Positions 4,876 to 64,000 of a DNA stretch of 64,000 nt are shown here, piece by piece (position 1 is the first letter of the stretch; each line of letters starts with the position of its first letter). The translations under genes and the position numbers were made by a program. The stretch is from Naegleria gruberi. Taxonomy: Eukaryota. Where the stretch lies: the NCBI GenBank assembly GCA_000004985.1, contig GG738896.1; one strand, 5' to 3'. Below the pieces are notes generated by a model that did not search any database, was not told the DNA's origin, and was given only the letters and a program-made list of their open reading frames with translations.

Positions 4876-6476
4876 ATGAACATACAGGAAGAAGTAAATC
4901 ATCAACAGCAACAGGAAACTTCTCCTAGAACACCACTCAGTGAATCTCCTCCTCTTCCTTCAACAACATCTCTTTTATCTGATAATCATCATGATGATAC
5001 TAACCCAATGAATAATAACAATAACAATAATAATACTAGTAGTGATGATAATAATAAGAATAATAATATAACAATTGATGATCCTATGGAAGAAAAGGAT
5101 GAAGAAGAAGAAGAAGAACATTTTGAAAGACCAAAAAACCTCTCCTCCTTTCTTTTATTATTAAAACAATCTAAAACATATAGGAATTTATTTAAGAAGT
5201 TTTTGGGATTATTATGTATATTGGTAGTGGTGATTTTGTGGACATTGGGAGGTGAAGCAATTCAATTAATTTATTCAGATATGGACTATGAGAAACCTTT
5301 TCTGGTCACCTATATTAGTACTAGTTTATTTTCAATTTACTTGTTGGGATTTATATTTGTTGGAACGTGGAGAAGACCATTGTTAAAAAGTGTATCTTGG
5401 TTGATTAGAGCTAGTTTAAATTGTTGTTTACCAAAACAGGTGTGTGAAAGAATGGGAATTTCACAAATTGATAGAAGAGAATATTCTAGAGTTGGGTCAG
5501 CAAGTCAAGATTTAAGTCAAACACAAGTTGAAAATCAATCAAATGATGTGGATGTTGGAAAAACATTTAGATTGGCTGTGATTGTGACATTCTTTTGGTT
5601 CTTTTCAAATACTGCTTATAATTATGCATTACTTTATACCAGTGTGGCCAGGTAAGTGTTCTTCCTGATCATTGATTCGACAATTTTACAATATTTAGTG
5701 ATACAATCATTTCTAATACTTCATGTTTATTTACATTTCTAGTTGGTTTATTAATTGGTGTGGAAACTCATTTCAGTGTTTTACGATTTATTGCAATTCT
5801 TGTGACCTTATCAGGTGTTGCACTTGTAACTTTATCAGATAGTCATCACAATGGAACAGGAATGAAAACAGATACTGTTTTGGGTAATATGCTTAGTTTA
5901 TTAGCAGCTATGGGATATGGTATCTATAGTTCAATATTGAAAAAGTATGAGGAAAATGTTTCAATGGCCATGATGTTTGGATTTGTTGGAATTTTGAATT
6001 TATTCTTCAATTGGCCAATTTTATTCATTCTTTGGGGATTGGATGTAGAAACATTTGAATTACCTTCTTGGAAAATATTCTTTGCAACAGTTGTTAATAG
6101 TTTAATTTCTGCTGTTTTGAGTGATTTATTATGGGCATTGGCAGTTGTCTTGACATCTCCAGTAATTGCCACAGTTGGTTTAACTCTAACAATTCCATTT
6201 GCCATCGTTTGTGACATGTTAATTCGTTCAGATTTTTCAGCGTTCAATGTAATGTATGCATTTGGTACTCTATTTGTCTTGTTTGGATTCATTGCTGTTA
6301 ACACATCATATTATCTTCCAAAGAAAGCTAGAAAATATGATCAACCATACTTTTGCAGTGTTGCCTATCTTGTTACAAAGGTAAAACCACTCATGCTTTC
6401 TTCCACCCCTGTTGGAGATATTGAGTCAAACAAAACTATTCGAAATTCCAATAACCAATCACCAAATTCTCATTAA
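4876..6476 (+). CDS. SLC35F-like (drug/metabolite transporter superfamily) membrane transporter, 2 exons
   Basis: Exon 1 is 4876-5651 and ends ..YTSVA+ag at a GTAAGT donor. The intron is ~126 nt with acceptor ..catttcag. Exon 2 runs to the stop at ~6476. It has an N-terminal poly-N/acidic region and then ~10 TM helices typical of SLC35F/EamA transporters. The track lists the exons as two separate ORFs (4876..5655, 5760..6476). Confidence 0.7.
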
Positions 6477-6702: not shown

Positions 6703-9055
6703 ATGTTATTCAGAATTACAGTTGTTAAATGTACTGATCTTCCACCCATGGATGCCAATGGACTATCCGATGGTTTTTGTGAATTGTGGGTTGTCAATTC
6801 GAAAACCAACAAATACCTCGAACCACCAAAGAATCAAAATGAAATTAAACGTACACAAATTGTCATGAAGAATTTAAATCCAGTCTTTAATGAAACTTTT
6901 GAATTTGATTTTAGTGAAAAGTTGAAGAGACGTGAAATTGATTTTGCAACAAGAGTATCAGAGGAAGATGATATTGATGATGATTATATTCTTGATGATC
7001 CGATGGATAATTTATTAATGATTAGAATTGTTGATTATGACAAATTCACAAAGAATGATGGTATGTATTGAATGATGGTTGTTATATAGTAGCTATATTG
7101 TTCATGATGTTACTACTGATGATGTTATTGATGATGACGATCAAAACTTGTGGATTGTTGTGAAATTGTTGAATATTATGATTTTATATAATTGATTGAA
7201 TAATATAATTAATTGAATATGATGATATTGAATAGTAATTGGATTTGTTCTACTTCAAGTATTCGGATTGAATTTAAAACCAAATGAAAAGCAACGTAGA
7301 ACTTTTCCAATTGTTGGTTCTGATCAGGGTTCTATTGAATTGATTATTGAATCTGTTTATGATCCAAAATCAATGCAAGGTTCTAGTTTTGCTAATTTAC
7401 CAGCTGTTTCCTCACTTTCATATGAAGCTGATGCTCCTTCAAATGTTATCATGACAGTTGGTCCAGTGATTGGTTTAGTAAAGAGTACTAGTGCTAGAAT
7501 TCTTGTGGAATGTTCGAAAGATTTGATTAATAATAATGATTCCGAGTTGGTATTGGATGTGGTTTGTTATCCAATTTGTGAAAGATCTCATTTAGAGAAG
7601 AGAGATGATTATCTCAATAAGCGTTTATTGCATCTACATATGCATGATACTCATGGTTCTTATCATGAAGCTATTCTTAAACGTTCACTTTTAACAAAAT
7701 CAAAGAGGGAAACTCTTAAAGCAACTAATATAATCAAAAAGAAGGTCATTATTCCAAATGCCAACATTCCACACACCTTTACAATTGAAGGTTTATCTCC
7801 AGATTATGTTTATAGAGTTGAATTCCCTAATGTTGTTAATACCAAGACAAGAGTTGGTATTATCAAGACAATGGTTAGTGATAATTTGGGAAATCTCAAT
7901 ACTAGATCACACCATTTGAACACGGCAGCTGTTAGTTGCAATTTAATTGAAAGACGTATTCCTGATAAGGATGTTTGGGAAAGAATGTTAGAAAAAGTTG
8001 ATGAACTTGACATTTTAATGCATTGTGGTGATCAAATTTATAGTGATTGTGGTCACAATGCATTCGATGAAGCAAAAAGAATTTGTGATGGTAGAATTAA
8101 ACTTGAAAAGGATGAGGAAAATGAAATTAAGGAACTTTTTAGAAAGTATTACAGATTAAATTGGAATCACCCTCCAACTAGAAGAATCATGTCTCAAGTT
8201 TCAAATTTAATGATCTTGGATGATCATGAAATTAGAGATGATTGGGGATCTGATGAATGTGATAAGGATAAGGGATCTGTTGAATATTATATTGGTAGAT
8301 TGGCACGTGAAGTTTATTGGGAATATCAAAGAAGTCTCAGAGAAGATGTCCTCTCAATGAATTATGAGGAAACTTTCAAGAAACATGAAGGATATTATCA
8401 TGTGTTTGGTGATTATGCAATCTTATTCTTAGATTTGAGAGCTGCTCGTTCATTCAATTCAGAATTGTCAGGAGATAAACCATTCCTAACACAACCTCAA
8501 TGGGATGATTTAAATAATTGGCTTTTCAAGGATAATAATGCCCTTGCTTCTGAGAATATAAAGGCATTGATTTGTGTCTGTTCCGTTCCATTAGTTTTCC
8601 TTAATAAGAAGATGACTGATAGTTTACCAAAGATTACTTCTAAACTTTCAGATATGAGAGACCACTGGAATTATGGACATCAATTTAATGAACAAATTGG
8701 TATTCTCAACTCAATTAATAGATGGAAGAAAGAACAGCCAAATAGAGAAGCAGTATTTGTTGCTGGTGATGTACATATTGGAGGTGTTACTGAAATTATG
8801 TATAATAATGAAATGGTATTGAAACAATTAACCACTAGTTCTGTTTCTAACAATGAATTTTCATGGTGTTTAGGATTATCAATGAGATTTATGCTCACTA
8901 AGAGTTCAGAACTCAAAGAAGGTTGGACATTTAAACATCAAAAGTGGACAAGAAAACGTAATTATGGAATTCTTAATATTGCAACAGACGGTGAAAAAGT
9001 TACACCAGTGATGAATCCTTACTTGAATACTTACATTAAATCATATAGATATTAA
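6703..9055 (+). CDS. C2-domain protein fused to a PhoD-like metallophosphatase domain, 2 exons, ~717 aa
   Basis: Exon 1 (6703-7060) encodes a C2 domain (LPPMDANGLSDGFCELWV...NLNPVFNETFEFDF...IVDYDKFTKND). The donor is GTATGT at 7061 and the 199-nt intron ends at ..cttcaag. Exon 2 (7260-9055) continues in frame (VFGLNLKP..GSIELIIE) and carries metallophosphoesterase/PhoD-like motifs (GDQIYSD; DDHEIRDDWG; GDVHIGG). The total CDS is 2154 nt, divisible by 3. Confidence 0.7.
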
Positions 9056-43987: not shown

Positions 43988-46111
43988 ATGGCCCAAGTTG
44001 AAACTTACAAATTCCAAGCCGAAATCAATCAATTGATGAGCTTGATTATTAATACATTCTACAGCAATAAGGAAGTCTTTTTGAGAGAGTTGATTTCCAA
44101 TGCTTCAGATGCTTTGGATAAGATTCGTTATATGAGTTTGACTGAACCTTCAGTTTTGGATACTGAAAAGGAATTGTGCATTCATTTAATTCCTGATAAG
44201 GTAAACAAGACATTGACAATTAGAGATACAGGTTGTGGTATGGCCAAGCACGATTTAATTAATTGCTTGGGAACTGTTGCAAGATCTGGAACTAAACAAT
44301 TTATGGAAATGCTTCAAGCTGGTGCTGATGTTTCCTTAATTGGTCAATTTGGTGTTGGTTTCTATTCTGCTTACCTTGTTGCTGATCGAGTTGTTGTCAC
44401 AACTAAACACAATGATGATGAACAATACATTTGGGAATCATCTGCTGGTGGCAGTTTTACAATTACTTTGGATGAAAGTGGTGAAAAATTGTCACGTGGA
44501 ACCAAGATTGTTCTTCACATGAAAGACGATCAATTAGAATATTTGGAAGAAAGAAAGTTGAAGGATTTGGTAAAGAAGCACTCTGAATTTATTGGTTATC
44601 CAATCTCTTTACAAGTTGAAAAGACTGAAGAGAAGGAAGTTGATGAAGATGACTCCATGTCAGATGATGAAAAGAAGGACGAAGACAAGAAGGAAGATGG
44701 TCCAAAGATTGAAGAAGTCAAGGAAGTAGATGACAAGAAAAAGAAGAAGGTTAAAGAAGTCAAGAAAGAGCTCGAATTGTTGAATAAGAACAAGCCATTG
44801 TGGACTCGTGATCCAAAGACTGTCACTAAGGAAGAATATTCCAGTTTCTACAAGGCATTGACAAATGATTGGGAAGAACATTTGGCTGTCAAGCACTTTT
44901 CAGTTGAAGGCAACTTTGAATTCAAGAGTTTGTTGTTCACACCCAAGAGAGCTCCATTCGATCTATTCGAACCAAAGAAGAAACTCAACAATATCAAACT
45001 CTATGTTAGAAAGGTCTTTATTATGGATAATTGTGAAGAGTTGATTCCAGAATATTTGAATTTTGTGAAGGGTATTGTTGACTCTGAAGATTTGCCATTG
45101 AATATTTCCCGTGAACACTTGCAACAAAACAAGATTATGAAAGTTATTAGAAAGAATTTAGTCAAGAAGTGTATTGAAATGTTCACTGAACTTGCTGAGA
45201 ATAAGGAAGATTTCAAGACTTTCTATGAAGCATTTGGAAAGAATTTGAAATTGGGTATTCATGAAGATTCTCAAAATAGACAAAAGTTGGCCGAGTTATT
45301 GAGATTCCACTCCTCTCAAACTAAAGGTGAAGATTGGACCAGCCTCAAGGAATATATTGAACGTATGAAGGAAGGTCAAGAATTTATCTATTACATTACT
45401 GGTGAAAGCAGAAAGGCAGTTGCTAGCTCACCATTCATTGAAAAGTGCACCAAGAAGGGAGTTGAAGTCTTGTACATGACTGATCCAATTGATGAATACA
45501 TGGTTCAACAATTGAAAGAATTCGAAGGCAAGAAATTAGTGTGTGTAACAAAGGAAGGATTGAAATTGCCAGAAACTGAAGAAGAAAAGAAGAAGAAGGA
45601 AGAATTGAAGGCCTCATTCGAAGCATTGTGCAAGTTGATGAAGGATATTTTGGGAGATAGAGTTGAAAAGGTTGTTGTTTCTGATAGACTTGGTGATTCT
45701 CCATGTTGTTTGGTTACTGGTGAATATGGTTGGAGTGCAAATATGGAAAGAATCATGAAAGCTCAAGCTTTGAAGGACAATTCTATGGCCTCCTACATGG
45801 TTTCAAAGAAAACAATGGAAATTAATCCAGAAAATTCTATTGTCAATGAATTGAGAAAGAAGGCTGAAGCTAATAAGGCTGACAAGACTGTCAGAGATTT
45901 GGTTTGGTTGTTATTCGAAACTGCCTTATTGACTTCTGGTTTCAGTATGGAAGAACCTCATACTTATGCTTCCAGAATTCACAGAATGATCAAACTTGGT
46001 TTGAGTATTGATGAAGAAGATCTTGCCTCTGAAAAGACTGAAACAACAAGCCAAGAAAATAAGGTTGAAGAAAGTCCAGCTGCTGAATCCTTAATGGAAG
46101 ATGTTGATTAA
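43988..46111 (+). CDS. HSP90: Cytosolic heat-shock protein 90 (HSP90), intronless, 707 aa
   Basis: Full-length alignment-quality match to HSP90 ([22 protein letters not shown]; [39 protein letters not shown]; a charged linker; [18 protein letters not shown]). The C-terminus is ..MEDVD, a variant of the MEEVD TPR-binding motif. Codon usage is biased toward highly expressed codons (GGT/GCT/TTG/AGA/AAG). Confidence 0.95.
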
Positions 46112-46121
46112 AATAAATAAT

Positions 46122-49100
46122 TTATCTCTTTTCCTTTACAAAGAATCTCAATAAGAGACCAGCTAAAACAATAAAGAAAACAGCAAAGCTTGCAGTGAAA
46201 ATGATATCCGCATAGAATCTTTCGTGGTCCATTCCCAATTCTTTCAGGAAAAAGTCACCATCACCTGGGAAGCTTGGGAAACCTTTTGGATCAATAACGA
46301 TTGGGAATCCGTGCAATTCATTGATGAGAAGGGCTTCATAGGCATAACTAAAGTATGAAAAGTATTTAATCCATGAGAGGTAGACTGGAAGTGAATCAGT
46401 ATTCAACAAGAATCCAGCAAACAACATATTTCCAAGAATTAACAAAATTGAAATCAAGTTAGCAGAAGCAACACTATTAGCAATTGTACCAATACAAATA
46501 CAGAGAGCTCCACTTGCTAAATTGAATAAAATTAAAATGAAAATAAACCAAAAGAAGTGTGAAGTGATTTCTCTCAAACCAATCATCCACTAATAATATT
46601 TTAGATAATTATTTCTATTGTCAAATAATCAATATTGAAAAATACTTACATAAGCAATAGATCCCATAATAATTGGTGGAATGACACGGAGTGGAATTAA
46701 ATCAAAGAAAGTCTTTGAGAAAAAGTATGAAATTGAAAGATAGTATCCATTTGCTCTTTCTCTCACATAAATTGTACGTTCTGTAATAAATAATTCCAAG
46801 CTAGACATGGCAGCAAAGTTCAACAAAGCACACATGAAGAAAATACTACCCATTCTGTTTTGACAAGCTTGGATATTGTTACTTTGCTGGAAGTAAATGG
46901 CACCAAGTAAAAGACCCATGATAATAGCACTCAAATAGTGAGCTGGCATAAGGTAGAAATTTCTGTAAAAGTTACGGAATGATCTCTTAGATAAAATGTA
47001 AAGTTGCGTATAGAACGAGGTGGCATACTCTTGAACCTTCTTGGTGTAAATATTATCTTCTGTCTTTACCAAGAGATTTTGTGATTCTTGATTTTCAGAT
47101 CCATAACCAGATTGTTTGAAAATTGGTTGTTGGTAAGATAAAGATTGATTATTTTGATTAATAGAAGTTCCTTGAGTCTCATTTTCTGACATTTCTGACA
47201 TGACATCTAATAAAAAGTCAGCAGGATTGTATTGAGATGGACAGTCATGACCAAGTTTTGACAAATAATCCAATGATCCTTCAGCACTTCCACTATAGAA
47301 TATTTTACCATCCTTCATTAAGAGTAAATTATCAAATTGTTGGAAAATATTAGAACGAGGTTGATGGATAGAGAATACAATAGTTCTGTTATGTTTAGTG
47401 GCCAGGTCGCAAATAGTCTTGATGGTTGAGACTGCGTGATATGAATCCAATCCCTTAAAAAGTTTGTCATTCATTAATAAAAGTAAAATTACTAACACTT
47501 GTAGGTTCATCCAAGAAGAGAATTTGTGGTGCAATGACTAATTCACAAGCAATACTGACACGACGTTTTTCGCCTCCAGAAATACCTTAAAAAGTTTGTT
47601 ATTCATGAAATAAAAGTAAAATTACTTACCTCTTGTCATGGCATCACCAATCTTTCTATCACGAATATGTGAAATTCCAAGCTCTTCCATAACAGACTCA
47701 ACACGTCTCTTCTTTTCCGTATATGGGACAGTATCAGGTAAACGAAGCTCCGCACTAAACATGATTGATTCAAAAACTGTCAAGGTACCCATTAAATGAT
47801 CATCTGATTGAGATACATAACCAGCAACTCTCTTATATTGGTTATAGTCAATTGGTTTGTTATTAACCAATAATTCTCCAAAAACATCTCCAGATTTAGA
47901 TCTACCAGCAATAATATCCAATAATGATGTTTTACCAGCTCCAGAAGGACCCATAATAGCAGTAACAGTTCCCGGTTTAAAGGTGTGACTCAATCCATGA
48001 AGAAGTGTAATTCTATTCTTGCTCTTGAGATGGAGAGCCCTTTCTCTTTCCTCCTCCTTTTCTTCCTTTGCAATATCTTCCTCATTGACTCCACTAACTT
48101 CCTGGAGAGAATTGATTTTCTTAGCAGTAGTTCTGATAATATAGGTCAAGTTACGAATTTCCAACTTGGCTCCAAATTCATTATTTCCTGTCTTCATCAT
48201 ATCCTCATATTCATGTTTAACCTTTCTAGTTTGAAGTTTAGAATAAATAATACTGAAAATTAATACAATCATGATAGCAACAAAAATTACTGAACCAACA
48301 GCTCCAGCAACAATTTTAGGTAAATCATTTTGTTTTGGTGGTTGAGGTGCAGGAACGTATACATCAACACACTCAGCAGCATGATCACAAGTTGATTGAA
48401 TAACACCAGGGAAGTTTTCATGTTGAACTATTAGAAAAATATTAACAGGTAAATATTTTAACATTGGAATTGAAACTTACTTGAACAAGACTTGGTTTCG
48501 TTATTACACTGTACATTTGCATAACCAGTCATGTGTTCTAATATATACAATACAAACTGGTTATAACATTTTGGAGAAATCATTGAACATGCACAGCCAG
48601 TAGTATATCCACATTTGTATAATACTTCTCCTTTTTCTGGAATTGATAAGACACAATCGTGGAATGTACAATAAAAAGTTTCAGCAAGAGAAGTATCAGA
48701 CTTGTCAAATGATCTGAAATAACAATTTCCACCAGCTGTCTTATTTTCCATTCCATTACAGTCAATTGTGAAATAATTTCCCATGAGAGGTATCATTCTT
48801 TCCGAAGTAACTTCACAACTATAAACCTTTTCTTTCTGTGGAATGTATGATTTATCACAAAAAGCAGCCGAATTGTTCAATCGTTGTTGACAAACGTAAT
48901 CATTACTACACATTCTACAATCCAATCCTTCCCATCCAGGTTGACAAGAACAAACTGGAGATTTATCGTCATCACTACTCGTACTAAATAAATTTCTTCT
49001 TGTGTTCGAATCATCATAAACTTTATCTGTCAATGATTTTCCATTTACACAGTCAATCAAAGAACAATTTCTAATTCCCATGGATAAATCATTCTTGAAA

Positions 49101-49372
49101 CCAGGCAAACAAACACATGTTGTATTATCTGTCGAACAATATCCAGCATTCATACATCTCGCATCACTATCACAAATTGTCCAATCGTATTGTTGTTGTC
49201 CAACAATTAGACTACCACTACTCATCATTATGATCACTAGGAAAATAAATAATACTAAACCACTACCACCGAATTTGAATGAATTATTGTTTGGGTTCTT
49301 CCGAATCCTATGTAGACCATGAGAGATCCCACCATTGGAAGAAGATAATGGGTTGGATAGCGATATCTGCAT
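46122..49372 (-). CDS. ABCG (White-type) half-transporter with an N-terminal signal-anchor plus an EGF-like cysteine-rich ectodomain and an extra TM helix; 5 exons, ~1016 aa
   Basis: Exons 48481-49372, 47630-48427, 47497-47585, 46650-47453, 46122-46589; introns of 53, 44, 43 and 60 nt with donors GTAAGT, GTAAGT, GTTAGT, GTAAGT. The total is 3051 nt, divisible by 3. Exon 1 has a signal anchor ([19 protein letters not shown]) and ~230 aa with more than 30 Cys, including EGF-like [12 protein letters not shown] and [15 protein letters not shown]. Exon 2 has a TM helix, then NBD Walker [18 protein letters not shown]. Exon 3 has the signature [12 protein letters not shown] and Walker [10 protein letters not shown]. 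Exon 4 begins [20 protein letters not shown]. Exons 4-5 carry an ABC2-type 6-TM domain. Confidence 0.8.
47454..47496 (-). repeat. Intron 3 of the ABCG gene, a near-identical copy of intron 2
   Basis: On the minus strand this is gttagtaattttacttttattaatgaatgacaaactttttaag. It is about 85-90% identical to intron 2 (47586-47629: gtaagtaattttacttttatttcatgaataacaaactttttaag). Confidence 0.8.
47586..47629 (-). repeat. Intron 2 of the ABCG gene (paired with the 47454-47496 copy)
   Basis: See 47454-47496. The two copies are separated by the 89-nt exon that encodes the ABC signature and Walker B. Confidence 0.8.
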
Positions 49373-49656: not shown

Positions 49657-51057
49657 TTAAAAATTGAAAGAAACATCCGAATAGGATCCATTCATAAGAT
49701 TCTTAAGGAAGTTTTCAACTCTAACATTTGGAATTCTGATAAAGAATGCAGAATCAGAGAATGGTGAAGAACATACTTTCCATCCTTGAGTTGTTAAATA
49801 TTTAAAGTCATCAAAGCATTCCATTCTTTGAATAACTCTGAAGGACTCATCATCTCTGTCGAACCAATTCTCTTCATCTTCACTATCAGCATACTTGCTA
49901 TGCTCAATATGACCTAGGGCACCATAGCTATTAGCTCCAGCTCCATAAACATCTCCATTGTGAGTTGTAAAGTAAGCAACATCTGAACCACATTCTATGG
50001 ATGTAATTAAAACATTCTTCGAGTCGAAATAGGTAATCTTAATTGGTCTACAACTGGTCATATTTTCAGAATCGTCTAAATGTGGAGTTGTTGAAAAATT
50101 GAAATATCCTGTTACGAATACTTCACCTGATGCATTTAAAAACATTGTGAAATTTTCTCCACATTTTACAGAGACAATTTCTTGATCTGTGAATGGTTCT
50201 ATAAGAACAGGTCCAGCATGTAGTTCAGTTGAACCCAATCCTAGTTGACCAAGTAAATTATTACCACATCCATACAATGATCCATCTGTCTTCTTAAAAA
50301 TAGTATGTGAAGATCCGCAATATATATCCTCAATATTATTCATAGTTGGAAGCATTAGTGGCACAGTTATCACATCTTTGGCATTATAGGTTCCTAGTTT
50401 ACCATAATTATTTAATCCTGAAGCAAATACATAATTTGCAGAAGTAATAAAGAATGTACACGATTCACCACAAACAATTTTTCTAATAACTTCACCATTA
50501 TTAATAGTGATCCTTGAAAGTTGATCGTACATTCTCTCCTTAGGTAGACCCAACTCAAAACATTTGTTTGACCCGAGTCCATAAATTTTACCCTTATTTG
50601 TTAATACAAATAAATGCTCACTTCCAAGAGTTATCTTATCTATAAAATCCTCTGAATCTTTCCAAACAAATGGTAACTTGGTTGGAGCAGTTGTTTCAGG
50701 AAATAATTCATCTGGTTGTTGTTTCTTCTTTTTCTTTTTCAAATTTTGAGTTGATCCACAAACAAACAAGTGTTTTCTACTACTTGTCAAGAAAACTGAA
50801 TATCCACGTGTATCATTACTAACACAATAAACGTGTTCTACCTTTTCATAACCCTCTTCTAATCCATTCATTCTCAGTGTTGGATTTAAATATTTTGGAT
50901 AGTATATTGATTGTGCATTTTGATTGCTAAACCCTAATTGATGACAATGATTTCTTCCCATAGAAAGAACCAATGTTTTGGAAAATTCTTTTTTTCTTTG
51001 TTCCGATCGTGTGGTTGCTGTATTACTGGCAGAAGCAGCAGAATGTGTTTGAGACAT
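49657..51057 (-). CDS. RCC1-repeat (regulator of chromosome condensation-like beta-propeller) protein
   Basis: 466-aa ORF with repeated RCC1 blade signatures (..VCGSTQNL..; KIYGLGSNKCFELGLP; VFASGLNNYGKLGT; LYGCGNNLLGQLGLGS; VFVTGY; VYGAGANSYGALGH). It starts MSQTHSAASASNTATT... Confidence 0.75.
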   Translation of the reverse strand: MSQTHSAASASNTATTRSEQRKKEFSKTLVLSMGRNHCHQLGFSNQNAQSIYYPKYLNPTLRMNGLEEGYEKVEHVYCVSNDTRGYSVFLTSSRKHLFVCGSTQNLKKKKKKQQPDELFPETTAPTKLPFVWKDSEDFIDKITLGSEHLFVLTNKGKIYGLGSNKCFELGLPKERMYDQLSRITINNGEVIRKIVCGESCTFFITSANYVFASGLNNYGKLGTYNAKDVITVPLMLPTMNNIEDIYCGSSHTIFKKTDGSLYGCGNNLLGQLGLGSTELHAGPVLIEPFTDQEIVSVKCGENFTMFLNASGEVFVTGYFNFSTTPHLDDSENMTSCRPIKITYFDSKNVLITSIECGSDVAYFTTHNGDVYGAGANSYGALGHIEHSKYADSEDEENWFDRDDESFRVIQRMECFDDFKYLTTQGWKVCSSPFSDSAFFIRIPNVRVENFLKNLMNGSYSDVSFNF

Positions 51058-51603
51058 TTTTTCAAATCAAGAAGGAAAATCCGAGAAACTGATGCAGATT
51101 AAAAATCGGAATGTACAACTCCACAATCAAATTGAATCTATTTTTATCTATTACTGATAATTATTTTTAGATTTTTAGAAACACAAGGAGGAAACTGTTG
51201 TTTACAACTCCTGTGAAATATCTGATCAAAATTCCATACAGTATTCATTGTAACACCTCGTACATTGAAAGATATGTTAAAATAAATTTAATATTCTTAC
51301 TTTTGAAATAGTGTTTGTTAGTAATGTGTTATCATGTAACTATTTCATTTCTAAAAGGATATGGGTAAATGAAGTTGATGGAACAGCAACAAATCATTTC
51401 AAGTCACTTTACAATTGCCTTTCCCAGACCTTCCGGTTGAAAGATTTTTGGTATTATTATTGCAAAACGATTGGTCAGCAAACCCTTCTTCCAATTTATT
51501 GTGGAGTTTCTACTTTCCGTTTCTTTCTTGCACCTTCTAAATTGAAAGTAATGAAAACTTCAGCACCAACATTGACATTTGTCTTTCTATTAGTAAAAAA
51601 ACC

Positions 51604-54600
51604 ATGTCATCGTTATTTGAGGGCTTTCTCCTCAACAACACAACAAGGAGGAAACTGTTGTCATCAACAACATCTCTTCTCTTCTTCCTACTCTTGTGCA
51701 TTACATTCTTCTTTTCAACAACGTGCCTTGTTGATGGTGAAAGAATAGATTTTTTTCCATCTACTATAGTAAGCTATGGTGACCAATCTTTTTGCTCTTC
51801 CATGTCCAGTAATTCCTATGTAAGTTTTAAAGAAGGATTTTCTTGTTATTAATCGGACTTTATGGTTTTTCCCTCCAAAATTTATGATTGTCTTGACAAT
51901 GAATTTGAAAAAATGTGTTGATATTAATTTTATTTGGCTTGCTATCATTGGATTTTCTCTGATCATGTGAACAATATGATGATAAATAATAATATTACTT
52001 TCGGAATGGTATAGAAATCATTTAAAAATCCAGTTTCATATCCAACACCTGGATGGCAATTATTATATTTCCAAGGATTTAATTGCCCAAAGAATGGAGT
52101 TCCTGAAGGAATTAGTGATCGTAGTTATGGACAATTGCGTGTTGGATATAATCACATTATTGCTTTTCAAGTGAAAAGTAATAATGGAACACAAAAATTA
52201 AATATTGTAGGAAAAGGTGATAATACAGTTGGTCAATTAGCTATTGATAGATATATTTCTGGTGGAGTCAGATATTTTGCCAATATTACATTTGAAATTA
52301 ACTGGGGAGAGATGGTTAGATTAGTACAAATTGAAGATTTAATAACATCAAGAACTATTGCAAATAATCAAGATGTTGCTAAACTTCAAACTTATGATGC
52401 TTGGGATTCTAATCTTTATTTTGATAATATTAAGGGACACTATTTCCCTGATAATATTATTATTCAAGATATTAATACTTGTTATTTAAATACTTTTATA
52501 ATTTTAAAGAATCAAGAAATTTATGGAACTGGTTCAAATATTTACAAAAGTTTAAGTTTATCAAACGAAAATAGCAAAAGTAACTCTCCTATAAGATTAA
52601 CAATTTTGGAAAATTTTTTAAAATCACAAAGTGATTGGATTGATCAACTTTATTGTGGTTATTCATCTGTTTTTATTAAAACAAAAGCTAATAGAATTAT
52701 TGTATTTGGTAGAAATGATGTAAATCAATTAGGTCTTGGATCTGAATTTAGAGCAAATTCAATTACTCCAACAATTCATCCATTTTTAACATATTATTCA
52801 CAAAATATTGCAAATCTTGATACTATTTCATTTGGTTTAAATTTTACTTTAATTTCATTCAAAGATGGTTCAGTTTATTGTGCTGGTTTAAATAATCACC
52901 ATCAATGTGGTCTTGGTATTAATGAATATACAATTTCAAATTTTGTTCAAGTACCAATACCAGAAAAGATTACAAAAATATCAACAACAGCATATGCATC
53001 ATTTTTTGGTATTGAAACTGGTGAAATATTATCTTCAGGATGGAATTTAGGTTTTATTTTAGGACAAAATATTACTGATGAAAATTATGTTTCATCTACT
53101 CCAGTTAAAATTGAAAATTTAATTTCTCCAAATGATTATCAACTTTCAAAAGGTTTTCAATTATTTCATATAACTTATCAAAATGCAACATCAACTATGG
53201 CATGGGGATCAAATCAATTTTATAGTTCTGGTATACTTTATCAGGGTACTGGAACAGCTGCTTATCCAACTATTTTAGCATTGGGCAATGTGGAACGTGC
53301 TGTTTTAGAATCTATTGCAAATCCATCTGAATGTATTTTAGTTGGTGGTCATGCTGCTGCTAATGGTTGTTCCAATAGTTTATTACAAAGAATTAATTTA
53401 AAAACAGGATTTAATACTACATTTGGTGAATTTCGTTCATATTGCAGTAATTTTGGTACTTTTAATTATTCTACAGAAGTTTGTTCATGTGATGAAAAAC
53501 ATTATGGATATTCATGTCATTTAATCAAACCAGAATTTTTAGGAAATTGTAACCAATCAAGTTTAGAAAATTTTGCTATTGCTCCAAATACATGTTATTG
53601 TGGTGGAGAAGGTTTTTATGGAACATCTTGTGAAAATAAGGCACCTCCTAGATCTGTTTACAGTTTTACTAGATCTTTAAATATTCAAAAATTTACTCTA
53701 AAAAATAAGATGTTTGATTTTGGTTATTTAATAAGTGGTCAATCACATACATTTTTAAAATCTCAATTGAATAATAATAGAGTTTATGTATTTGGTAATG
53801 GATTGAATACAAATGATAAATATGGAATTGGTTTGGCTAGTAATAATATGATAAGTGATACTATTCAAATTTCAACATTATTTGAAAGATTATCAAAGAA
53901 ATTAACTTCTTCAATAAGAAATATTTATCCAATGAAAATTCAATCAGTTGCATTATTTAGTAATGGAGATATTTATAAGACTTTAAATAATTCAGATTTT
54001 GAAATTATTGCAAGTAATGTTAAATATTTAACATGTTCAGATATTACATGTTTTTTTATTACTAATGATAAGAATGTTTATGGTATTTTTGATAATCAAT
54101 ATAATCAACTTGGTTTAACTGATTTTGCAACAAGACAAAAAGTTTATGAATCTCAACCTGTTTTAGTATCACTTTTAAATAATAATTATCATAAGGAGAT
54201 TGTTAATATTTATCCTTCAAATTATTTTACATTATTTGTTAATCAATTTGGTAATTTATTTGGTATTGGTAAAAATACAGAATATCAATTAGGTATTGGA
54301 CATAATTTAAATATTGATAAGTTTATTATTCCATTAATAATTGAAAAACCTGTTTCACATGTTATTGTTACAGAATCTATTACATATTTTAAAGAATTAA
54401 ATTCTGTTTGGAAAACAATGGGTAAAGATATTTTAAATATTGCTCCAATTTCTCAATATTTAATTTATCCAACAGTAATAACATCTTTACAAGAACAAGA
54501 AAATATTTATAGAGCTAAAGGTGATATTATTATTACTCAAACAACAACTAAATTTAGACAATTAACACTTAATCAAGACCTTTCATATGGTCAAGAAAAA

Positions 54601-57600
54601 ATTATTGATGTTAATATTATGGGAGATGATATTATTTTAGTTACAATTCCAAGTAATTTTAATTCTATACTTTGTTATAATGGTTATTTAGATATTACTG
54701 GTACTTCATGCATTTGTGATAAAGGTTTTAGAGGAATTGATTGTAATTCTTATTTATGTGATAGAGTAACATGTAATTCATGTATTGGACCAAATATATG
54801 TTCTAAAAATCAATCTACAACAACAAATGAATTGAGATTATTCTCAAAAAATTATGGAATGATACAATCAAAGTTTAATGTTAAACATCATACTATTGGT
54901 GATAATTTTGCTATATTTATAGATTATGATGGTGAAACTAAATTTATTGGTGATAATTTTTATGGTGAATTAGGAATGGGTGGTTATTCTTCAATTAGTA
55001 TTAGTACCTCAAATTTACAACTTTTAACAAATAATATTTTACTTTTACCAATTTATTTAGCTAATGAAAATGTTAAATCAATTACATCTGGCAATAATTT
55101 TATTATTGTTTTAACAGAATCAGGTAATTTATTCTCTGTTGGTGATAATAGATTTGGTCAATTAGGTCAAAATGATACTATTAGTAGATATTTTTTAACT
55201 AAAATAGAAAGTACAATAACTTTTACAAGTGTAACTTGTAATTCTTTTCATTGTATTGCCTTAGGATCAAACAACAAATATTATGGTTGGGGAGATAACA
55301 CATTTGGTCAATTATGTTTAGATTCAACAACTAAAAAGGTTGTTTACACACCTTCACAAATTATATTTGATGTTATTATAGATGTTGTATCTACTTCAAT
55401 TATGTCAATTGGTCAAAACTCTTCAATATTTTATAGTAATAGTGGAGATGTGATTGCTTGTGGTAAAATAACAGTACCATCAAATTATGCTGATAAATCA
55501 GTAAGACAAAGAGTTTTACCAAATTTCAATATTGATTTACAAGCTATGGAACAAATACCAAGAAAATTCTATACCGATTTATGTTTAAAAAATTCTAATG
55601 AAGAATATTACTGTTTAGGTGAAAACAAATTTGGTACTCTAGGTTTTGGTCATGCTTTACCTCTTTATGGAATTTTTTTATCAAAACATTTTGGTGTTGA
55701 TGGAGGATTATTTTTCCATACTCACACTAATAAGATTAATTTCTATTATTCTAAAAACAAAATTTTAAATTATTTTGGTAATGGTGATTTATTGAATGAT
55801 ATCAACAATATGAATCCAGCAAGACAAACAAATGTTTTTCAATCAATTGGTAAATTTAGTTTCATAACATCAAATGAGAAATTTGGTTATATAATTACAA
55901 ATACTAGCAATTGTTTTAATAGAGGATATTTTTCTAATGGAATTTGTACTTGTAATAATATTAAATATTTAGGTGATGAATGTCAAACAAATACTAACAT
56001 TCCACAAGGTACAACTTCTCAATTCCAAATAATTGATACTTTAGGTAATAATTTTAATTTTACTAATAAGTTTGGAAGTATGTCAAAAATTGAAACATTT
56101 GGTAATTTACCATTTGGTTTTAATAATACTAGAAATAATTTAAGAGTTGTTAGTACCTTTAATTTGGCATTAAATCAATCCACTTCTCAACTTGCACTCA
56201 TTTTTGCTATTGATAATTATGCTAATTTAAACGTTGACATTCAATTTCCAAATAGTGGGAAAATTAGTAAACTTCAAACAAGATTGGAGGAAGGATCTGA
56301 TTACATTTATCATACAATTACTACTGATAATATAGATACTAATGCAATTATTCAAGTAACATATACAACAAATAATTCAGTAATTTTAGATAGTGATATG
56401 AAGAACCAATTTCTTAAAGTTTATACAAGAAATGAAAAAAATAATATTATTCCTATTGGATTGAAATCTAGCTCTGAATTATTATCTGAAGTACTTGCAA
56501 GGTTGAATTTCCTTTTTTCTATTAATGGTCCACATACTGCAGAAATTTCCTCTATTGAAGAATTTCCATGTGATCTAGATGGTAATAATAATGTGATAGG
56601 TCTCAGATTAGATGGAAATTTTTTCAATTATACATTTTATCCAATTCTAAAAGATGAATCTTTCCGTACTTTAAAGAACTTTTACAGCTCAAAAATTTCA
56701 TCAATTAGATATCCTATTCATGAAACATTTAATTTTGCAGAAAGTGATATTAGTCTCATTAATTTATCTAATAATAATAATCTTGAACAATCTGCAGGTT
56801 ATTATGATTTATCACCAGTTAAAAGAACAAATATTTTAATTAATGTTTCAAAATCAAAGATTTGTGATATTCCATTTGCTGATTTATTTATTAATCCTTC
56901 TAAATATAATTTTACAAATACTAATATGTATTGTATGAAACCAATTTTTGATAATTCTTGGTGTAAACCATTAAGTTTTAGAGAAAGTACTTTATACTTG
57001 ACTCAATTTTTTGTTTCTACAAAATTAAGTATTCCACTTGCACTTTGTGACTCATGTTCTATTTTAAATTGTTTTGATTTTTTAACTCAAAATACTTCTA
57101 GATTATCCTATTATTTTGTTTACCCAGATAATAATAAGATTATTTCTAATAATTTTAATATATTTGAAACAAGAAAGGATGTAAATGTTGATTTATTATT
57201 CAATGAATTTAATGAAAATAATTTCCTTAATTTTGATTATATTAATATGGGTATTATTTATAAATATGATTCTCCTATTGGAATACAAGAATTAAAAGGA
57301 ACTATCAAATTACAATATTTGAAATATTTACAAAGTTTCAATTTTACACCTATTGTACTTGCTAGAAATAGTGATAATATTGTTACAATTAAAAGTGAAA
57401 ATATGAAAGATTTCATAAAATATAATCAAGTTTATTGTAAAACAAGAATTAGTGAAGAAATAATTACTTTGGATGACAATGATAAATCAACTTCCTATTG
57501 TAATATTAGAACTGGTATTGAATATAATCAAAATATAACAGTTCAATTAATGGCTTACCCTATATCAGGAAATAATCCTTTTAAAATTGGAGAATTTAAT

Positions 57601-60600
57601 GTTTATGTTTTAAATATAACACTTATTCCAAATATTATCAATAAGTATTCTACAAAATATCCACAATTAATATTTATTAATTCTGATTTTACAACAGGAA
57701 GCTTTTTATCAAATTCTAAATTAGAATTTATGGAAAATGGTGAAACTGTTTATAAGATTGATCAACTAAAAATTAGTTATTTCAATACTTTATCCATTAC
57801 TGCAGATATTTATAAACAAAATCTTGACATGTATTTAGATAATGTAAATTTAGGATATTTTACTTCTCAAATTGTTTATAAACAAGTCAATTTAGAAAAA
57901 ATTATTCCATCCTTAAGTTTTAATACTGAAGAGATGCCTACAATTTATTTAGATAGAGAAATTTATTCAAATATTCATTCAAATATTCAGTATAGATGTT
58001 TAGATACTTTAACAAATACTTCATATTCTGCTCAATACTTAAATTCTAGAATAATATGTAATATTAATAATTTACCTACAAATAATGTAAAATTATTAGA
58101 TTTAATTGTTCAAATAAGAATTTATTCATTTAATGATAATGAATGGTTTACATATAGTAGTAATAGTGTTAAGTTTTATCATTTAATTTCTAATATGAAT
58201 ATTTCTTTAGCAGAAGGATCACAAACCTTTTCAAAATGTCATTATTTATCTTCTAGTACAACAGGTTTCACTCCAAGAATTAAATTAAATGAAATTGTTT
58301 TACCTGAAAGTGAAACTTATAGATTTTCAATATGCCATTATAATAGGTTAAATGAAATTGTTACCTATAGATCTAATTATTATAGAGATAATTTATTTGA
58401 AGCATCAGGATTTACTTTATATCTTAAAAGTGGTTATTCTAATATTTATTTATGTGCTGACTCAATGATTGTATCAAAACCAGTTGTAGTTTTTGTTATT
58501 AATCAAACAGATTATGATTCCAAACCAATTTTTGGTTTTATTGGTTCTGATATTTGGTCTGGTTATATTTTCCATCATCAACCACTTTATTCTGATTCTC
58601 TCTTCAATTTAACCTATTCTTGTGCCTTATTTGGTGATGTTCAAAATTATACTGTTTATTCAACAGATTTAATTACAAACAAAATTGATAATTATTATGT
58701 AACAAGATGTATTTTCACTGGTTTAAATAATATTATCAAACAAGAGGCAGGTTTTTATTTTTCATTACTTGCAAAGAGAGGATCAGAAACTGTTCAATTA
58801 CCAGCTACTTTTATTAATTTCATTTATGGACCAAAACCTACAAATTATTCTACTCCATTTATTTCTCATATTCCATATTCTGGTTATATTTCAACAACTT
58901 TATTAACACAAGATCAGGATAGAGATTTATTTGTTTCTAAAAATCAAAATGGATTTTTTAGATTAACTCTCCCAATTGATTGTTTGTTATTTAAAGTTGG
59001 TGGTACTTATCCTATTGCATCTGCACCACTTGATACAACATCATCAACTCTAAAATGTGATTTAACTAAATATACAGTTACAAGCAGTGAACCATTCGAA
59101 ATATCATTAGGTTCACTTGTTACAGAATATTCTTATTTTGTAGAATTTACATCAAGAACTGTACATTTCACATATTTGAATAAGATAGAATTTAACTTTG
59201 AAGGCTATCCAATTTTAGAAACTGGAAAATCTATTCTTCTAAATTATTATACTAACAAACTTCCTCAATACAAACAAACCCAATTGAATGTTACTATGTC
59301 TGCATTAGGACAATACCCCATTATCAAGTCATGTGATTTTGAACTTACAGGATCTTGTATAGTAGATTATAATTTAACAATTCCAATTACTCCAGTTTTA
59401 CAAACTTACATACTTCAATTTTCATTTATTATTAATGAATTTTTATTGAAACAAACATTGAACATTGAAAATACATTGTTCAATAACAGATTTAATGTAA
59501 TGTACTATTCACCATTCCTCTTTGATTTTAAAACTGATTCAAGCATTTACAATTTCAAGTTACAAATTGATAATGGATTAAATCCTGATTTCAATTTTGA
59601 TCTTGATACTGATGGTATTAGAAGAAGCATTTTTTATGGTTTGAATAATGATAGTATAACAGAAGTTACTTGCTCTAGAATTAGTAATTATAGTACTAGT
59701 ATAGCATCTAATTTAGAAACAAGAATTGTATCAACATTTAAAGGAATTACATTTTCTGTTGATAAGAAACCATCAACTATTTACCTTAGAGAACTTTACA
59801 CTACACCAAATATTGTCTCTCAATCAATTCAAAAAACTATTAATATTACTCTTACTACAGATATTGCTATTCAAAAACCTCTAAAGAAGTATTATATTTC
59901 TTTATTAGATAATAAGTATGAATGTAGTATTGAATCAACATCTTTGATTTGTCCTGTTTTAATTACATATATTGGTAATCCTTTCTACAAGGAAGTTCTT
60001 AAAATTTTAGATGGTGATAATGTTGTAACAAGGATTGGTTTACCATTTATCCTATTCAAACCAATTTCTATTCGTGAAGTTAAACCAACACTTCTACTTC
60101 AAGATAATAACTCTGTTAATACTACAGTTTTAATGGAGCAAACAGTTTTTGAAGATTTAGGAACAGAATTTATATTTTCTTGTTCCATCGAAGATGGTAA
60201 CTTCTCAGCTATTGTTGGTGATTCTAACTCTGTTAGATGTAATTTCAATAACTTGAATACTGGAAGAAAGAGTGTAAAAATTTATCTTTCCTCTAATAAT
60301 CAATACAGATCCATCAAGGAATTATTATTAACTGATATTAATCCAGCAAAAGATTTTGAAGTTATTAAGAATCCAACCATAGCTCTTGATAATTCTATTG
60401 AGCAAAAAACTTTATTCTATACTTCTGAAACCTTTTCATTAACAACTCTTAATATTCTAGTTACAAATACTGAATTCACTTTGAATAATATCTTGTATAA
60501 CATTTCTACTGAAATTGGTTTTTATGGAAAAAACAGCTTTGTTGAAAGTACTACTTATTTGGGAAAATTTGATACATCATACAAATTCCAAGTATCATTT

Positions 60601-63600
60601 TATGCTTCAAATAACTATGAAGGATTTGTTCCTCTGAGATTAACAAAAGTTTTATCAGGAACTACTAAAGAATCTAGAGCTCTTACTTCTGATGATTACA
60701 TTTTAACAAAGATATCTGATTTGGTTCTAACTTGTGTAACAAAGGTAACTTTATCAAAGAGTGTTCCAGCATTTGGTGTTGAATCTAATTTACCAAGATT
60801 AGTTCAATTATATTCAAACTTTAACTTTTTAAAATTTATTCCTGATTCTAATCTTTTACAAGATGGAAAGGTTAATTTTAAGTGTGTTTATGAATATTTA
60901 CCAAAATCTAATAAGGCAATTAGTAGCACTACTAGAATTTATAATAACGAAGCATTCGAATGTAATATGACAACACCAGATGTTGGTCAAGTTCAAATTG
61001 ATCTTTATGTTGAAAAAGATGGACATTCATTATCTCTTAATATTAATTCATGGAATTATATTATTTATGATGGTTTATTCTTACAACCTTCTTATGGTTT
61101 GAGAACTATTGAAAATTCAAGACTGGTAAATCCGTTCAAGATTCAAAAATACTCTGATTTGTCTGGTATTAACTTGAATCAATTTACAAAGTTTAATGGT
61201 AAAATTACTGAACCTGATGTTTCCTTTACTTGTGAAAAGGAATTAAGTTCAGATGGTATCTATCCATTATTGAACTGTACTATTCCTGTTTTACCATCTA
61301 CAAATATTATGTCTTTCAAACAGTATGAATTAAGACTTTACACAAATCCAAGTATGCAACTAATTTCAAATTTCTCACTAGGTTGGCTTCCAACAAGTTC
61401 TCTCTATATTAGTAATATTAATCCAAAAATTATTCAAAAATCTACTAGTAAGACTGATATGAAAACAATTTATGTAGATATCTCGGGAGATAGTAATGTT
61501 ATTTCAAGAACCTTACCTGAAGGTAACTTTGCTATTTATACAAGAAGTGCAGGTGTTGCCCTTTTACAATCTGCTAGACCACCTTATGTTGCTCAACCTG
61601 CATCTATTGCTATTCAAACTTCTAATTTTGAAGAAACTGTAACATTACAATATGTGAACTATAACTTACTTACACCTGTTATTGATATTCCAAAACCAGA
61701 CCTTGTCGATTTTATGAAACTCACTGTGAATGATGTTGAATTGAATAGTATTCAATATTCATCCGACAGTATTAAAGGTTCTAAGGCAAGTGGTGCAACT
61801 ATCTTTTTCACTGTAAGCAAGAATACTGCCACACTATTCATGTTAAATAATGGTGGTTATAATGGTTCTATCAAATGTGTTCAAGATCCAATCACTAGTA
61901 ATAGTGCAACATTTGTGTCTGAATCAACTGATACACTCAAGTTCAAATGCGTTTTAGCAAAGACAAGCTCAATTACAAATTCCTTTATTCTTTCTAAAGT
62001 TGAAATTTACTATAATAATCCAATGGCAGAGAATGGAAATATGAAGGTTTCATCTAGTGCTTTAGATTTTATTTGGTTACCTTCTACTTTACCAATAGAA
62101 CAACCTGTACCATTTGCATTTATCTCCAGAGTTGGTTCTTTTGATATTTCACTTTCAGATAAGAAGGTATTTATTTCCTCTGATAATTTTGTTTGTTATT
62201 TGGCTGATTCTACAAGTACCAATGTAGTGAAAATCAAAGCCATTTATAATCCATCAGGAACTCTCACATGTCCATTCAGTTTTAGCTATTCTATATCAAC
62301 AGTATTTAAAATTTCTATTTACTTTAGTAATGGTCCAAGTGATGTTCTTTTAACAACAACAAGAGATGTAACCTTTATCAATGCACCTTTGGAAATTTCA
62401 TACATTGACCCATTCATTACTTATCACTTACCAGCACTTACTGGTAGTACAACAGATATCAATTACAAGGTCAGCAAATTGAGTTTTATTCCTCAAGGTT
62501 TATCTTGTACTTTTAGAGAAGTTACATCAACAATACCAAGTATTGGTCAAGTTAGAAAAATAACACAAGCTCAAATTCAAGACGGTTTATTTGTTTGTCC
62601 TTTCTTGATTGATCAAACATTCTCATCTTATAATTTACTTACCAAATTAGTGATAGATTTAGGAAGTAATCTTTTAGACATTTCTAGCAATGAGCTTGAA
62701 TTGATTCTTTACAAAAAGAAGCTGACATGGAATATCAACTCATATTTGACAGCATCAAATTTGAATACTAGATATGAACTACGTAATTATGAAATTCCAC
62801 ATTCTTCAAGTTATAGTCTTCAACAATCTGTTGTTGCTACTCCTTATTTAAGATCTCAAAAAATACAAAACTTGAAAACAACAACATTAGATTGTATTGG
62901 AGCTGATCCAGCTAGTTGTACATTTGTTGGTATTGAACCAATGGTTAACAAAATACCTTCATACATGACCACTGCTATTGAATTTATCAATGTTGAAAAT
63001 CAAAGAAAATCTTACATTATTGCTAATGACTTGACATTGTTCCTTAAAAAGTCTTCATTCAATGTTTCTCATATTTCTCCATATATTGCAGACTACAGAC
63101 AAAGTCATGCATCTAATCAAAATTTCCTCTTTACCAGTGCTAGTTTAAATGCTGAGGACTTTGATATTACATGTCAATTCGATAACAAAAAGACAAATAT
63201 GACAAGAAATCAATTTTGTGTTGTTAAACCACCAACTTTACCAAATGGATACCCAAAAACTGGTATTCAAAATGTCACTTTAACTTGGAATGGTATTGAT
63301 TTATATTCTAGAAGTTATCCAATAGATTTCATAGAAGCCTATCAAGTTAATAATTTGATAACTTTTTATTCATATAGATCTAATATTACATTGATTGATA
63401 ATCCTTATGTTCCTCTACCTTTCAGTGGAGATTTTTCTGGCTATACTTTTTCAATTGGACTTTTTGAAAAGAATAGATTAATAGGTGAAGCAACTTGTAA
63501 ACAACTATTTGCTAATAATGCCCAATTAGAATGTGTAAAGGGACCTTTTAGTTATTCAACATCTTATCCAGTTACTTCTATTGTGAAATTATTGATTAAC

Positions 63601-64000
63601 GCTCAATCTGCTTTCCAGATGAAAGGAGAAATTGTGTTATATTCTGCTCCTACTATTCAAAGTCTCAGTACTAATTATTTCAGAATTAACCAAATTTATA
63701 CTATGGAAGTCTATGGATCTGTATTCTATCAAAAGGATACGCCAACCCTTGAAATATATTCCAATACTACTTTCAATTCATATCCTACCATGGTTGTTGA
63801 TTCCAATACTATTCGCATTCAAAACATTGGCTTCAATGACCTACAAGAAACTCTAAGAAAATCCAGATTGAAATTTAGTTCAGGTGCCTATTTAGATCTA
63901 CCAGATATTTCTATTTATAAAGGAGTGAAAGAAGATTTCTCGTTGCAATCCATCAATTCAGAAGCATATGATAATGGTGTTATTACAGCAACCACAACTA
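51604..64000 (+). CDS. 5'-partial giant gene (more than 4,000 codons in the window, continuing past the window end): a signal-anchored extracellular or surface protein with RCC1-like repeats, EGF-like modules and a long array of beta-sandwich (IPT/TIG- or Ig-like) repeats
   Basis: Exon 1 is 51604-51819 (MSSLFEGFLLNNTTRRKLLSSTTSLLFFLLLCITFFFSTTCLVDG..SNSY, a hydrophobic signal-anchor) with a GTAAGT donor. The intron is 195 nt with acceptor ..ggtatag. Exon 2 starts at 52015 in the same frame. I spot-translated that frame at 52.0, 54.0, 57.0, 60.0 and 63.6 kb and found no stop in any of them. It has RCC1-like blades (VFGRNDVNQLGLG; VYCAGLNNHHQCGLG; VYVFGNGLNTNDKYGIG; LFGIGKNTEYQLGIG; LFSVGDNRFGQLGQ; YYGWGDNTFGQLCLD) and EGF-like modules (CSCDEKHYGYSCH; CYCGGEGFYGTSCE; CICDKGFRGIDCNSYLCDRVTCNSC). 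From ~56 kb on it has Asn/Ser/Thr/Ile-rich ~100-aa modules (..PKIIQKSTSKTDMKTIYVDISGD..; ..PTIQSLSTNYFRINQIYTMEVYG..). It is absent from the ORF track because it has no stop codon in the window. Confidence 0.8.

Follow-up and report, generated by a model that had tools for sequence, protein, structure and literature searches.

Toxoplasma cannot invade host cells, nor Plasmodium progress through its life cycle, without cysteine repeat modular proteins (CRMPs). In their general plan these proteins begin with a signal sequence and a large modular ectodomain that varies, continue with Cys-rich modules of the Ephrin-receptor-like and EGF-like kinds, and end in a conserved multipass core and a cytosolic tail (PMC9815656). 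In the absence of CRMPs, discharge of rhoptries in Toxoplasma and of mucocysts in Tetrahymena is not triggered (PMC9670195, PMC9815656). For TgCRMPa it has been shown experimentally that the N-terminus lies outside and the C-terminus in the cytosol, and a role as a contact sensor resembling a G protein-coupled receptor (GPCR) has been proposed (PMC9670195). In the literature we searched, CRMPs are treated within the alveolates only. Here we describe a giant gene of the heterolobosean Naegleria gruberi, located at positions 51604-64000 of the analysed window (64,000 nt of contig GG738896.1) and continuing beyond its end. Comparison of profiles establishes that the C-terminal module of its product is homologous to the alveolate CRMP core. 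The best explanation, to which we give a probability of about 0.72, is that this protein is a CRMP-type contact sensor with a new ectodomain, its function being proposed by homology.

The giant gene and its C-terminal core

Positions 51604-64000 are the 5′ three quarters of a single two-exon gene of about 5,404 codons, counted with the corrected start discussed below. In the forward frame whose codons begin at positions leaving remainder 1 on division by three, the last stop lies at 52012-52014, and the following 3,995 codons through nt 64000 are free of stops. The other two forward frames contain 614 and 290 stops between 50 and 64 kb. With a stop probability of 0.084 per codon, taken from the regional base composition, a stop-free run of this length has log10 P = -152. 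Third codon positions of the giant frame are 53% T and 12% G+C, and the bias towards T-ending codons pointed out in the initial annotation of this DNA is thus real. The program-made listing of open reading frames (ORFs) has none of at least 80 amino acids (aa) in 52-64 kb, since ORFs that leave the source are not included in it; the initial annotation had rightly put this blank down to the want of a stop.

The translation agrees without a single mismatch over 3,995 aa with residues 7-4001 of a public protein of N. gruberi NEG-M (XP_002672584.1 / EFC39840.1 / UniProt D2VTD0; P0051 in our set), which is 5,338 aa long and named "ATS1 domain-containing protein". The ORF itself is hence not new, being already public as an uncharacterised entry, and no paper found by our literature search cites the accession XP_002672584.1. 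An exhaustive search of representative proteins with aa 2640-3839 returned two proteins only, this record and a Willaertia magna protein of 5,394 aa (KAL9642939.1; P0052), which is collinear over the full length with 35% identity over 5,260 columns. A word-indexed protein search with the last 995 aa of the window protein gave no match. The search with the N-terminal region provided the third orthologue, P0001, encoded on metagenome contig L001 (ERZ2098899 NODE_312, 1.5x coverage), with 43% identity to the window protein in a single high-scoring segment pair (HSP) of 4,066 columns. The frame of L001 has more than 5,075 codons, leaves the contig end, and contains one TAG at 7268-7270 (codon 1877), which is either a sequencing error or a real interruption. 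This TAG made the gene caller split the frame into products of 1,876 and 3,180 aa.

Across the orthologue comparison the identity per 100 aa is at least 27% throughout. The intact frame, the collinear orthologues and this floor of identity therefore support a single conserved coding unit, and the idea of one giant gene running off the window end has held. The initial annotation had also proposed to extend the contig in the 3′ direction. This was achieved in part: P0051 being the same protein as that of the window, its record supplies the missing 1,337 aa, so that the stop-side sequence comes from the protein and not from contig DNA.

Past the window, the Cys-pair array described below runs on for about 620 aa. 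Next come an Ephrin_rec_like module (PF07699, E 4.1e-10, with a weak DUF7630 match of 4e-4) and, C-terminal of it, a juxtamembrane module of the form CxxGYxGxxCxxC...C..C. About 8-9 hydrophobic segments are predicted by hydropathy at aa 4785-5203, and the protein ends in a charged, Ser/Thr-rich tail of about 135 aa. The C-terminal modules of L001 have the same order and the same Ephrin_rec_like and DUF7630 matches. Thus the simple signal-anchored protein of the initial annotation has to be given up: the full-length record ends in an Ephrin_rec_like module and a multipass core homologous to that of CRMPs, which gives the protein the look of a receptor more than of an allorecognition protein of the Tgr type.

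The relation of the membrane part to CRMPs was evaluated in both profile directions. In the first, a hidden Markov model (HMM) of the CRMP core, built from seven CRMP sequences of S3 Table of Singer et al. 2023 (PMC9815656), matched aa 4653-5205 of P0051 with 62-72 bits, the isolated C-terminus scoring 72.3. By comparison, 200 sequences shuffled locally in windows of 12 residues, so that the hydrophobic segments stayed where they were, did not exceed 5.0 bits, and none of 46 RCC1 background proteins matched. In the second, a reciprocal profile of the N. gruberi, Willaertia, P0047, P0048 and P0050 sequences matched PbCRMP2 (47.5 bits), Cardiosporidium CRMPA (47.0) and TgCRMPA (43.7), with 210 shuffles reaching at most 5.5 bits. 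Two collinear, though short, HSPs from pairwise BLASTP against TgCRMPB also speak for the relation. Hhalign of the transmembrane (TM) profile against TgCRMPB alone matched just the Cys-rich juxtamembrane part with 56% probability, so that the multi-sequence HMM was needed.

A search with the membrane part returned a few metagenomic proteins whose plan is a TIG-like domain, a Cys-rich module and the same multipass region. P0047, P0048 and P0050 are GC-rich metagenomic proteins in which the CRMP-like multipass core comes after a TIG-like or Cys-rich module. The CRMP-core HMM also matches P0050 (E 1e-8), P0048 (E 1e-7) and the truncated L001, but not P0047. Because P0050 and P0048 match, the core family may be widespread in protists outside Alveolata and Heterolobosea.

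The Willaertia model (around its aa 5100-5130) has no counterpart of N. gruberi aa ~5060-5160, a region which includes the conserved stretch 'RFKFLF..YFYYE..IRK'. The score of this model with the CRMP-core HMM is poor (E = 24) for want of this stretch. The gap is probably a mis-called intron in the annotation.

Leader, intron and modules of the predicted ectodomain

The features of the gene within the window are collected in Table 1.

Table 1. Coordinates of the parts of the giant gene in the 64,000-nt window.
Feature	Position	Strand	Remarks
Exon 1, probable true start, with basic n-region (RRK) and hydrophobic leader	51604..51819	+	72 codons; nearest in-frame ATG downstream of the stop at 51538
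Hydrophobic core of the leader, SLLFFLLLCITFFFSTTC	51673..51726	+	translation and hydropathy scan
Intron, 195 nt, GT..AG, phase 0	51820..52014	+	GTAAGT...TATAG; four in-frame stops inside
Exon 2	52015..64000	+	3,995 codons, no in-frame stop; residues 7-4001 of XP_002672584.1 / D2VTD0
RCC1-like domain 1	52132..53349, approximate (exon-2 aa 40-445)	+	PF25390 E 1.3e-31, PF00415 4.5e-14, PF13540 1.1e-8 on aa 1-470
Cys-rich EGF-like stretch 1	53368..53634	+	10 Cys, two CxC...C modules; EGF_TEN E 0.0037, below cutoff
RCC1-like domain 2	53692..54669, approximate (aa 560-885)	+	PF25390 8.2e-15, PF00415 6e-9
Cys-rich EGF-like stretch 2	54673..54804	+	8 Cys: 7/8 kept in three species, the eighth in two; no HMM match of its own
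RCC1-like domain 3	54862..55899, approximate (aa 950-1295)	+	PF25390 9.1e-34, PF13540 7.5e-19, PF00415 1.3e-14
EGF-like module 3, C-x10-C-x-C-x9-C	55912..55986	+	EGF_TEN E 4.3e-4 on whole protein, 0.0069 on the piece, below cutoff; Cys conserved
Region without family, ~445 aa	55987..57321 (exon-2 aa 1325-1769)	+	7 conserved Cys, no Pfam match; three-species alignment
Array of divergent ~105-aa units, one conserved Cys pair each	57322..64000, goes on beyond window	+	15 recognisable units in window
Modelled unit	62074..62397 (P0051 aa 3360-3467)	+	predicted 7-strand Ig-like beta-sandwich

Where does the protein begin? The frame of exon 1 is open at 51541-51849, with the first in-frame ATG at 51604 and the second at 51802. 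XP_002672584.1 begins with MSSNSY at the second of these, and the leader is therefore absent from the public model. A start at 51604 adds MSSLFEGFLLNNTTRRKLLSSTTSLLFFLLLCITFFFSTTC, that is, a basic stretch followed by a hydrophobic segment, with a Kyte-Doolittle peak of 2.5 at aa 17-46 of the exon 1 product. The upstream ATG and hydrophobic leader, already suggested by the initial annotation, have equivalents in both orthologues: the N-terminus of the Willaertia magna protein, MRNITFFLIVFLFIYQYVNFVYSQ, is a textbook signal peptide, and the frame of L001, which has no intron here, reads ...RRKRMTSSCIGSLSSSGLTSLLLFLFACTFLLLSIIMNIF (RRKR and a hydrophobic segment). Because both orthologues carry a leader at the equivalent position, 51604 appears the likelier start, and the annotated one is probably 198 nt (66 codons) too far downstream. 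The leader itself would be either a signal peptide or a signal anchor. The late public start would hide this signal sequence and mislead any localisation prediction.

The intron predicted in the initial annotation is confirmed from two sides. XP_002672584.1 shares the junction 51819/52015 (MSSNSY/KSFKNP), which gives independent support, and the spliced product aligns over the junction with the intron-less orthologue L001 without a gap (GDQSFCSSMSSNSY/KSFKNPVSYPTPGW against GSHVSCSLLSTQTI/TIYPNPHKYPEPGW).

The first component of the ectodomain is a set of three RCC1-like domains (RLDs). The initial annotation had recognised RCC1 propellers here, and the Pfam scores lie far above the cutoffs: 274.4 bits for PF25390 (cutoff 150), 107 for PF00415 (21.7) and 73 for PF13540 (22). 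RLD3 is the top-scoring stretch in the scan of the whole protein, and blades of RLD2 cross-match those of RLD1 and RLD3. The three segments are 325-405 aa each, a size compatible with seven blades.

After each RLD there is a short Cys-rich stretch with the signature CxCx(8-9)C, conserved in three species; in stretch 1 every Cys is kept. The one EGF profile with any match here is PF25024 EGF_TEN, at 16-20 bits where the cutoff is 65 (E 4e-4 to 7e-3), and a PDB sequence search with an EGF-like stretch was without match. Of the EGF modules initially proposed, the conserved Cys pattern thus remains and the profile matches are all below threshold. We call these stretches EGF-like, not proven EGF.

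Between the last EGF-like module and the array lies the region without family. At ~56590-56995 (exon-2 aa ~1525-1660) it has by eye a rhythm resembling leucine-rich repeats (LRR), e.g., LINLSNNNNLEQS, followed by conserved Cys which resemble an LRR C-terminal cap. This stretch had no Pfam match, and the impression is a visual one from the three-species alignment.

The last and longest component within the window is the array. The two Cys of a pair are spaced 8-30 residues apart and pairs recur every 85-215 residues, 15 of them in the window and 18 in the full protein. All three species keep 16 of the 18 pairs; in each of the other two, one Cys is kept in two species only. The gaps separating recognisable units are one unit long, except one of three units, so that the window may hold about 21 units and the whole protein about 27. 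The units are very divergent. Self-BLAST and a 5-seed repeat HMM revealed no repeats except the RCC1 blades, and hhalign among three-species unit profiles gave at most 21% probability, with alignments in register. Pfam has no match from about aa 1770 to the window end, the best TIG hit (PF01833) having E 0.45 and 11 bits against a cutoff of 20.9; in orthologue L001 the best TIG hit has E 0.27, likewise below threshold. PDB sequence and profile searches with a five-unit stretch and with the unit family gave nothing significant, and no TIG chain was matched. For the modelled unit, FN3 and cytokine-receptor domains score equal to TIG, and we describe it as modelling as a generic Ig-like sandwich. 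Consequently, of the dozens of IPT/TIG- or Ig-like repeats in the initial annotation there remain 15 Cys-pair units (about 21 with the gaps), one of which models as Ig-like; HMM support for TIG was not obtained.

Conservation of Cys is close to total along the protein: 76 of 80 are kept in L001, and 104 are kept in at least two of the three species. This supports an extracellular location, as expected for disulfide-bonded modules.

Several genes lie upstream. The nearest, at 49657-51057 (-), codes for a 466-aa RCC1 protein (PF25390, E 8.5e-56) with no leader and is transcribed divergently from the giant gene. We considered it as a recent duplicate and rejected this, since its identity to the RCC1 domains of the giant protein is about 25%. 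At 46122-49372 (-) there is a multi-exon ABCG-type transporter, with ABC_tran and ABC2_membrane pieces in four adjacent ORFs separated by very short gaps, and at 43988-46108 (+) a single-exon cytosolic Hsp90 (PF00183, E 1e-233).

Proposed function and rival explanations

As a CRMP-type contact sensor, the N. gruberi protein might work as follows. The leader would take about 4,700 N-terminal aa outside the cell. The three RCC1 propellers with their EGF-like spacers would form a distal head binding a ligand or a surface, and the Ig-like chain would be a long stalk. Contact with prey, substrate or another cell would then be relayed via the multipass core and the tail to the cytosol, where the response might be secretion, formation of a phagocytic cup or adhesion signalling. 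The CRMP-like role is drawn from the CRMPs of Toxoplasma and Tetrahymena, which are required for triggering rhoptry or mucocyst discharge, and a link to exocytosis may be supposed by this analogy.

A number of points weigh against this interpretation. The CRMP-like core lies outside the window and is linked to it through the identity with the public protein, not through a DNA read. The membrane part has no Pfam family and no PDB-sequence match (searched with the C-terminal 1,337 aa and with the TM core), and the AlphaFold2 (AF2) model of the core has a pLDDT of 49, too poor for use. We infer the topology, the binding role of the propellers and the link to signalling or exocytosis, and topology and leader cleavage rest on hydropathy. 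The Ig-like model covers one unit of about 105 aa, from an alignment of paralogues built by us. An HMM of 54 units (18 from each of three species) recovers its training units and nothing significant in the gaps, where the presence of units is therefore deduced from spacing alone. Sequons of the NxS/T type are not enriched at 52015-63999, with 49 observed against about 68 expected despite 9.7% Asn, and we dropped sequon enrichment as a sign of extracellular location. Finally, no rhoptry- or mucocyst-like organelle is known in Naegleria, and the alveolate function is therefore not simply transferable.

In the strongest competing explanation, the protein serves passively in adhesion or allorecognition, in the manner of the Tgr or plexin-IPT type: its Ig/TIG-like chain and propellers would bind other cells or the substrate, and its membrane part would only anchor it. 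A likeness to the adhesion and allorecognition proteins of social amoebae was indeed seen in the initial annotation. It does not fit the source, since N. gruberi belongs to Heterolobosea and is a solitary amoeboflagellate, not a dictyostelid, and the C-terminal core is CRMP-like. TIG HMM matches are all below threshold, and a conserved core of about nine segments common to CRMPs, together with a conserved tail, goes far beyond the needs of an anchor. Moreover, the exhaustive search gave one orthologue in each species, and no family of polymorphic paralogues came up in it. We consider this explanation unlikely.

Less probable still is that the core is a channel or transporter and the protein a mechanosensor of the polycystin-1/PKD type, in which force on the ectodomain gates ion flux. 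The two have analogous plans, in that a multipass C-terminus comes after a giant ectodomain with Ig-like repeats, and the core has no family assignment that would speak against a channel. Nevertheless, the C-terminal 1,337 aa match no PKD_channel, REJ, GPS, TRP or other channel family at E <= 1, and the sole detectable relatives of the core are CRMPs, and neither PMC9670195 nor PMC9815656 reports channel activity for them.

As the weakest alternative, the public start at 51802 could be correct, in which case there would be no signal sequence and the RCC1 domains would be classical GTPase-regulating propellers in the cytosol, attached to a membrane protein. Eukaryotic RCC1-like domains are classically found inside the cell, the deposited model does start at 51802, and an ordinary cytosolic-type RCC1 gene adjoins at 49657-51057; yet the frame is open upstream to the ATG at 51604 with its leader, both orthologues start with a hydrophobic leader, and the RLDs alternate with Cys-rich EGF-like modules and are followed by 18 conserved Cys pairs and Ephrin_rec_like, an arrangement which argues for an oxidising, extracellular location and makes this version very improbable. 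The outside N-terminus found by experiment in TgCRMPa (PMC9670195) speaks against it as well.

If a CRMP-type contact sensor is accepted for Naegleria, a wider hypothesis can be formulated: sensors of the CRMP type would not have arisen in alveolates but would be a more ancient class of eukaryotic receptors, with Discoba among their bearers. In Naegleria this class would have recruited RCC1 propellers as extracellular ligand-binding heads, and meeting prey or substrate would set off a cell response, for instance regulated secretion or the formation of a food cup. We put this forward tentatively and regard it as possible but doubtful. If true, it would provide a free-living and tractable model of CRMP signalling and a rare case of RCC1 propellers working outside the eukaryotic cell.

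Three things appear new: the reading of this protein as a CRMP-family member outside Alveolata, an ectodomain of RCC1 and Ig-like parts, and the corrected start. We found no paper combining 'cysteine repeat modular' and 'Naegleria' in a literature search covering few subscription journals; in automated family resources, PANTHER for example, the proteins may already stand together.

Comparison with known modular surface proteins

Receptors with IPT/TIG domains (plexins, MET, PKHD1/PKHD1L1) and Dictyostelium TgrB1/TgrC1 differ from the Naegleria protein in that the latter has no PF01833 match at threshold. The membrane part of plexins and Tgr proteins is single-pass, whereas that of Naegleria is multipass. 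For the dictyostelid Tgr allorecognition proteins, neither origin nor TIG repeats, single-pass anchor or paralogue family finds a match here.

Adhesion GPCRs follow an analogous logic, with a long adhesive ectodomain on a multipass signalling core; for CRMPs this analogy was proposed by their authors (PMC9670195). However, the C-terminal 1,337 aa of the Naegleria protein have no GAIN/GPS or 7tm match at E <= 1, and the hydrophobic segments number about nine, not seven.

Bacterial secreted or surface RCC1 proteins with Ig-like, FN3 or CBM domains are the top non-orthologous matches to the N-terminal 1,400 aa. They share with the Naegleria protein RCC1-like propellers in an extracellular multi-domain context, but have no CRMP core. 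A recent bacterial origin of the RCC1 domains was considered and dropped, because taken per domain the neighbouring eukaryotic RCC1 protein scores equally: for RLD1 it reaches 35 bits and the best bacterial match 34, and for RLD3 a Cryptosporidium protein reaches 31 bits. With bacterial and eukaryotic scores equal in this way, nothing points to recent transfer. Extracellular RCC1 propellers are unusual in a eukaryotic receptor.

The closest system remains the CRMPs (Toxoplasma CRMPA/B, Plasmodium CRMP1-4, Tetrahymena and Paramecium proteins). They belong to Alveolata and the Naegleria lineage to Heterolobosea (Discoba), and no heterodimer partner, MIC15/TSP1-type partners or secretory organelle of this kind are known in Naegleria. 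Identity to any single CRMP core is low, and the ectodomains are different. That of Naegleria would consist of three RCC1-like propellers and about 27 predicted Ig-like units, whereas CRMPs are listed with Kringle, MAR, C-type lectin, furin-like and PbH1 modules, with no RCC1 in the CRMP domain tables examined. The Naegleria protein nevertheless appears to have the same overall plan, its own topology being predicted from hydropathy, and in it also an Ephrin_rec_like Cys-rich module stands directly N-terminal of the core. In one CRMP, moreover, Ephrin_rec_like and the TM region are immediately preceded by an Ig-like domain, He_PIG. The cores are homologous in both profile directions and have common landmarks: CxxGYxGxxCxxC before TM1, a Cys-containing loop, (K/R)(Y/F)xFL...Y(W/Y)(Y/W)E..xxxRK and L.L.P(F/Y).K. 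With a clear homologue of the CRMP core among Heterolobosea, the family would have an earlier origin, its ectodomain would prove to be freely exchangeable, and the core could be studied in an organism that is not a parasite.

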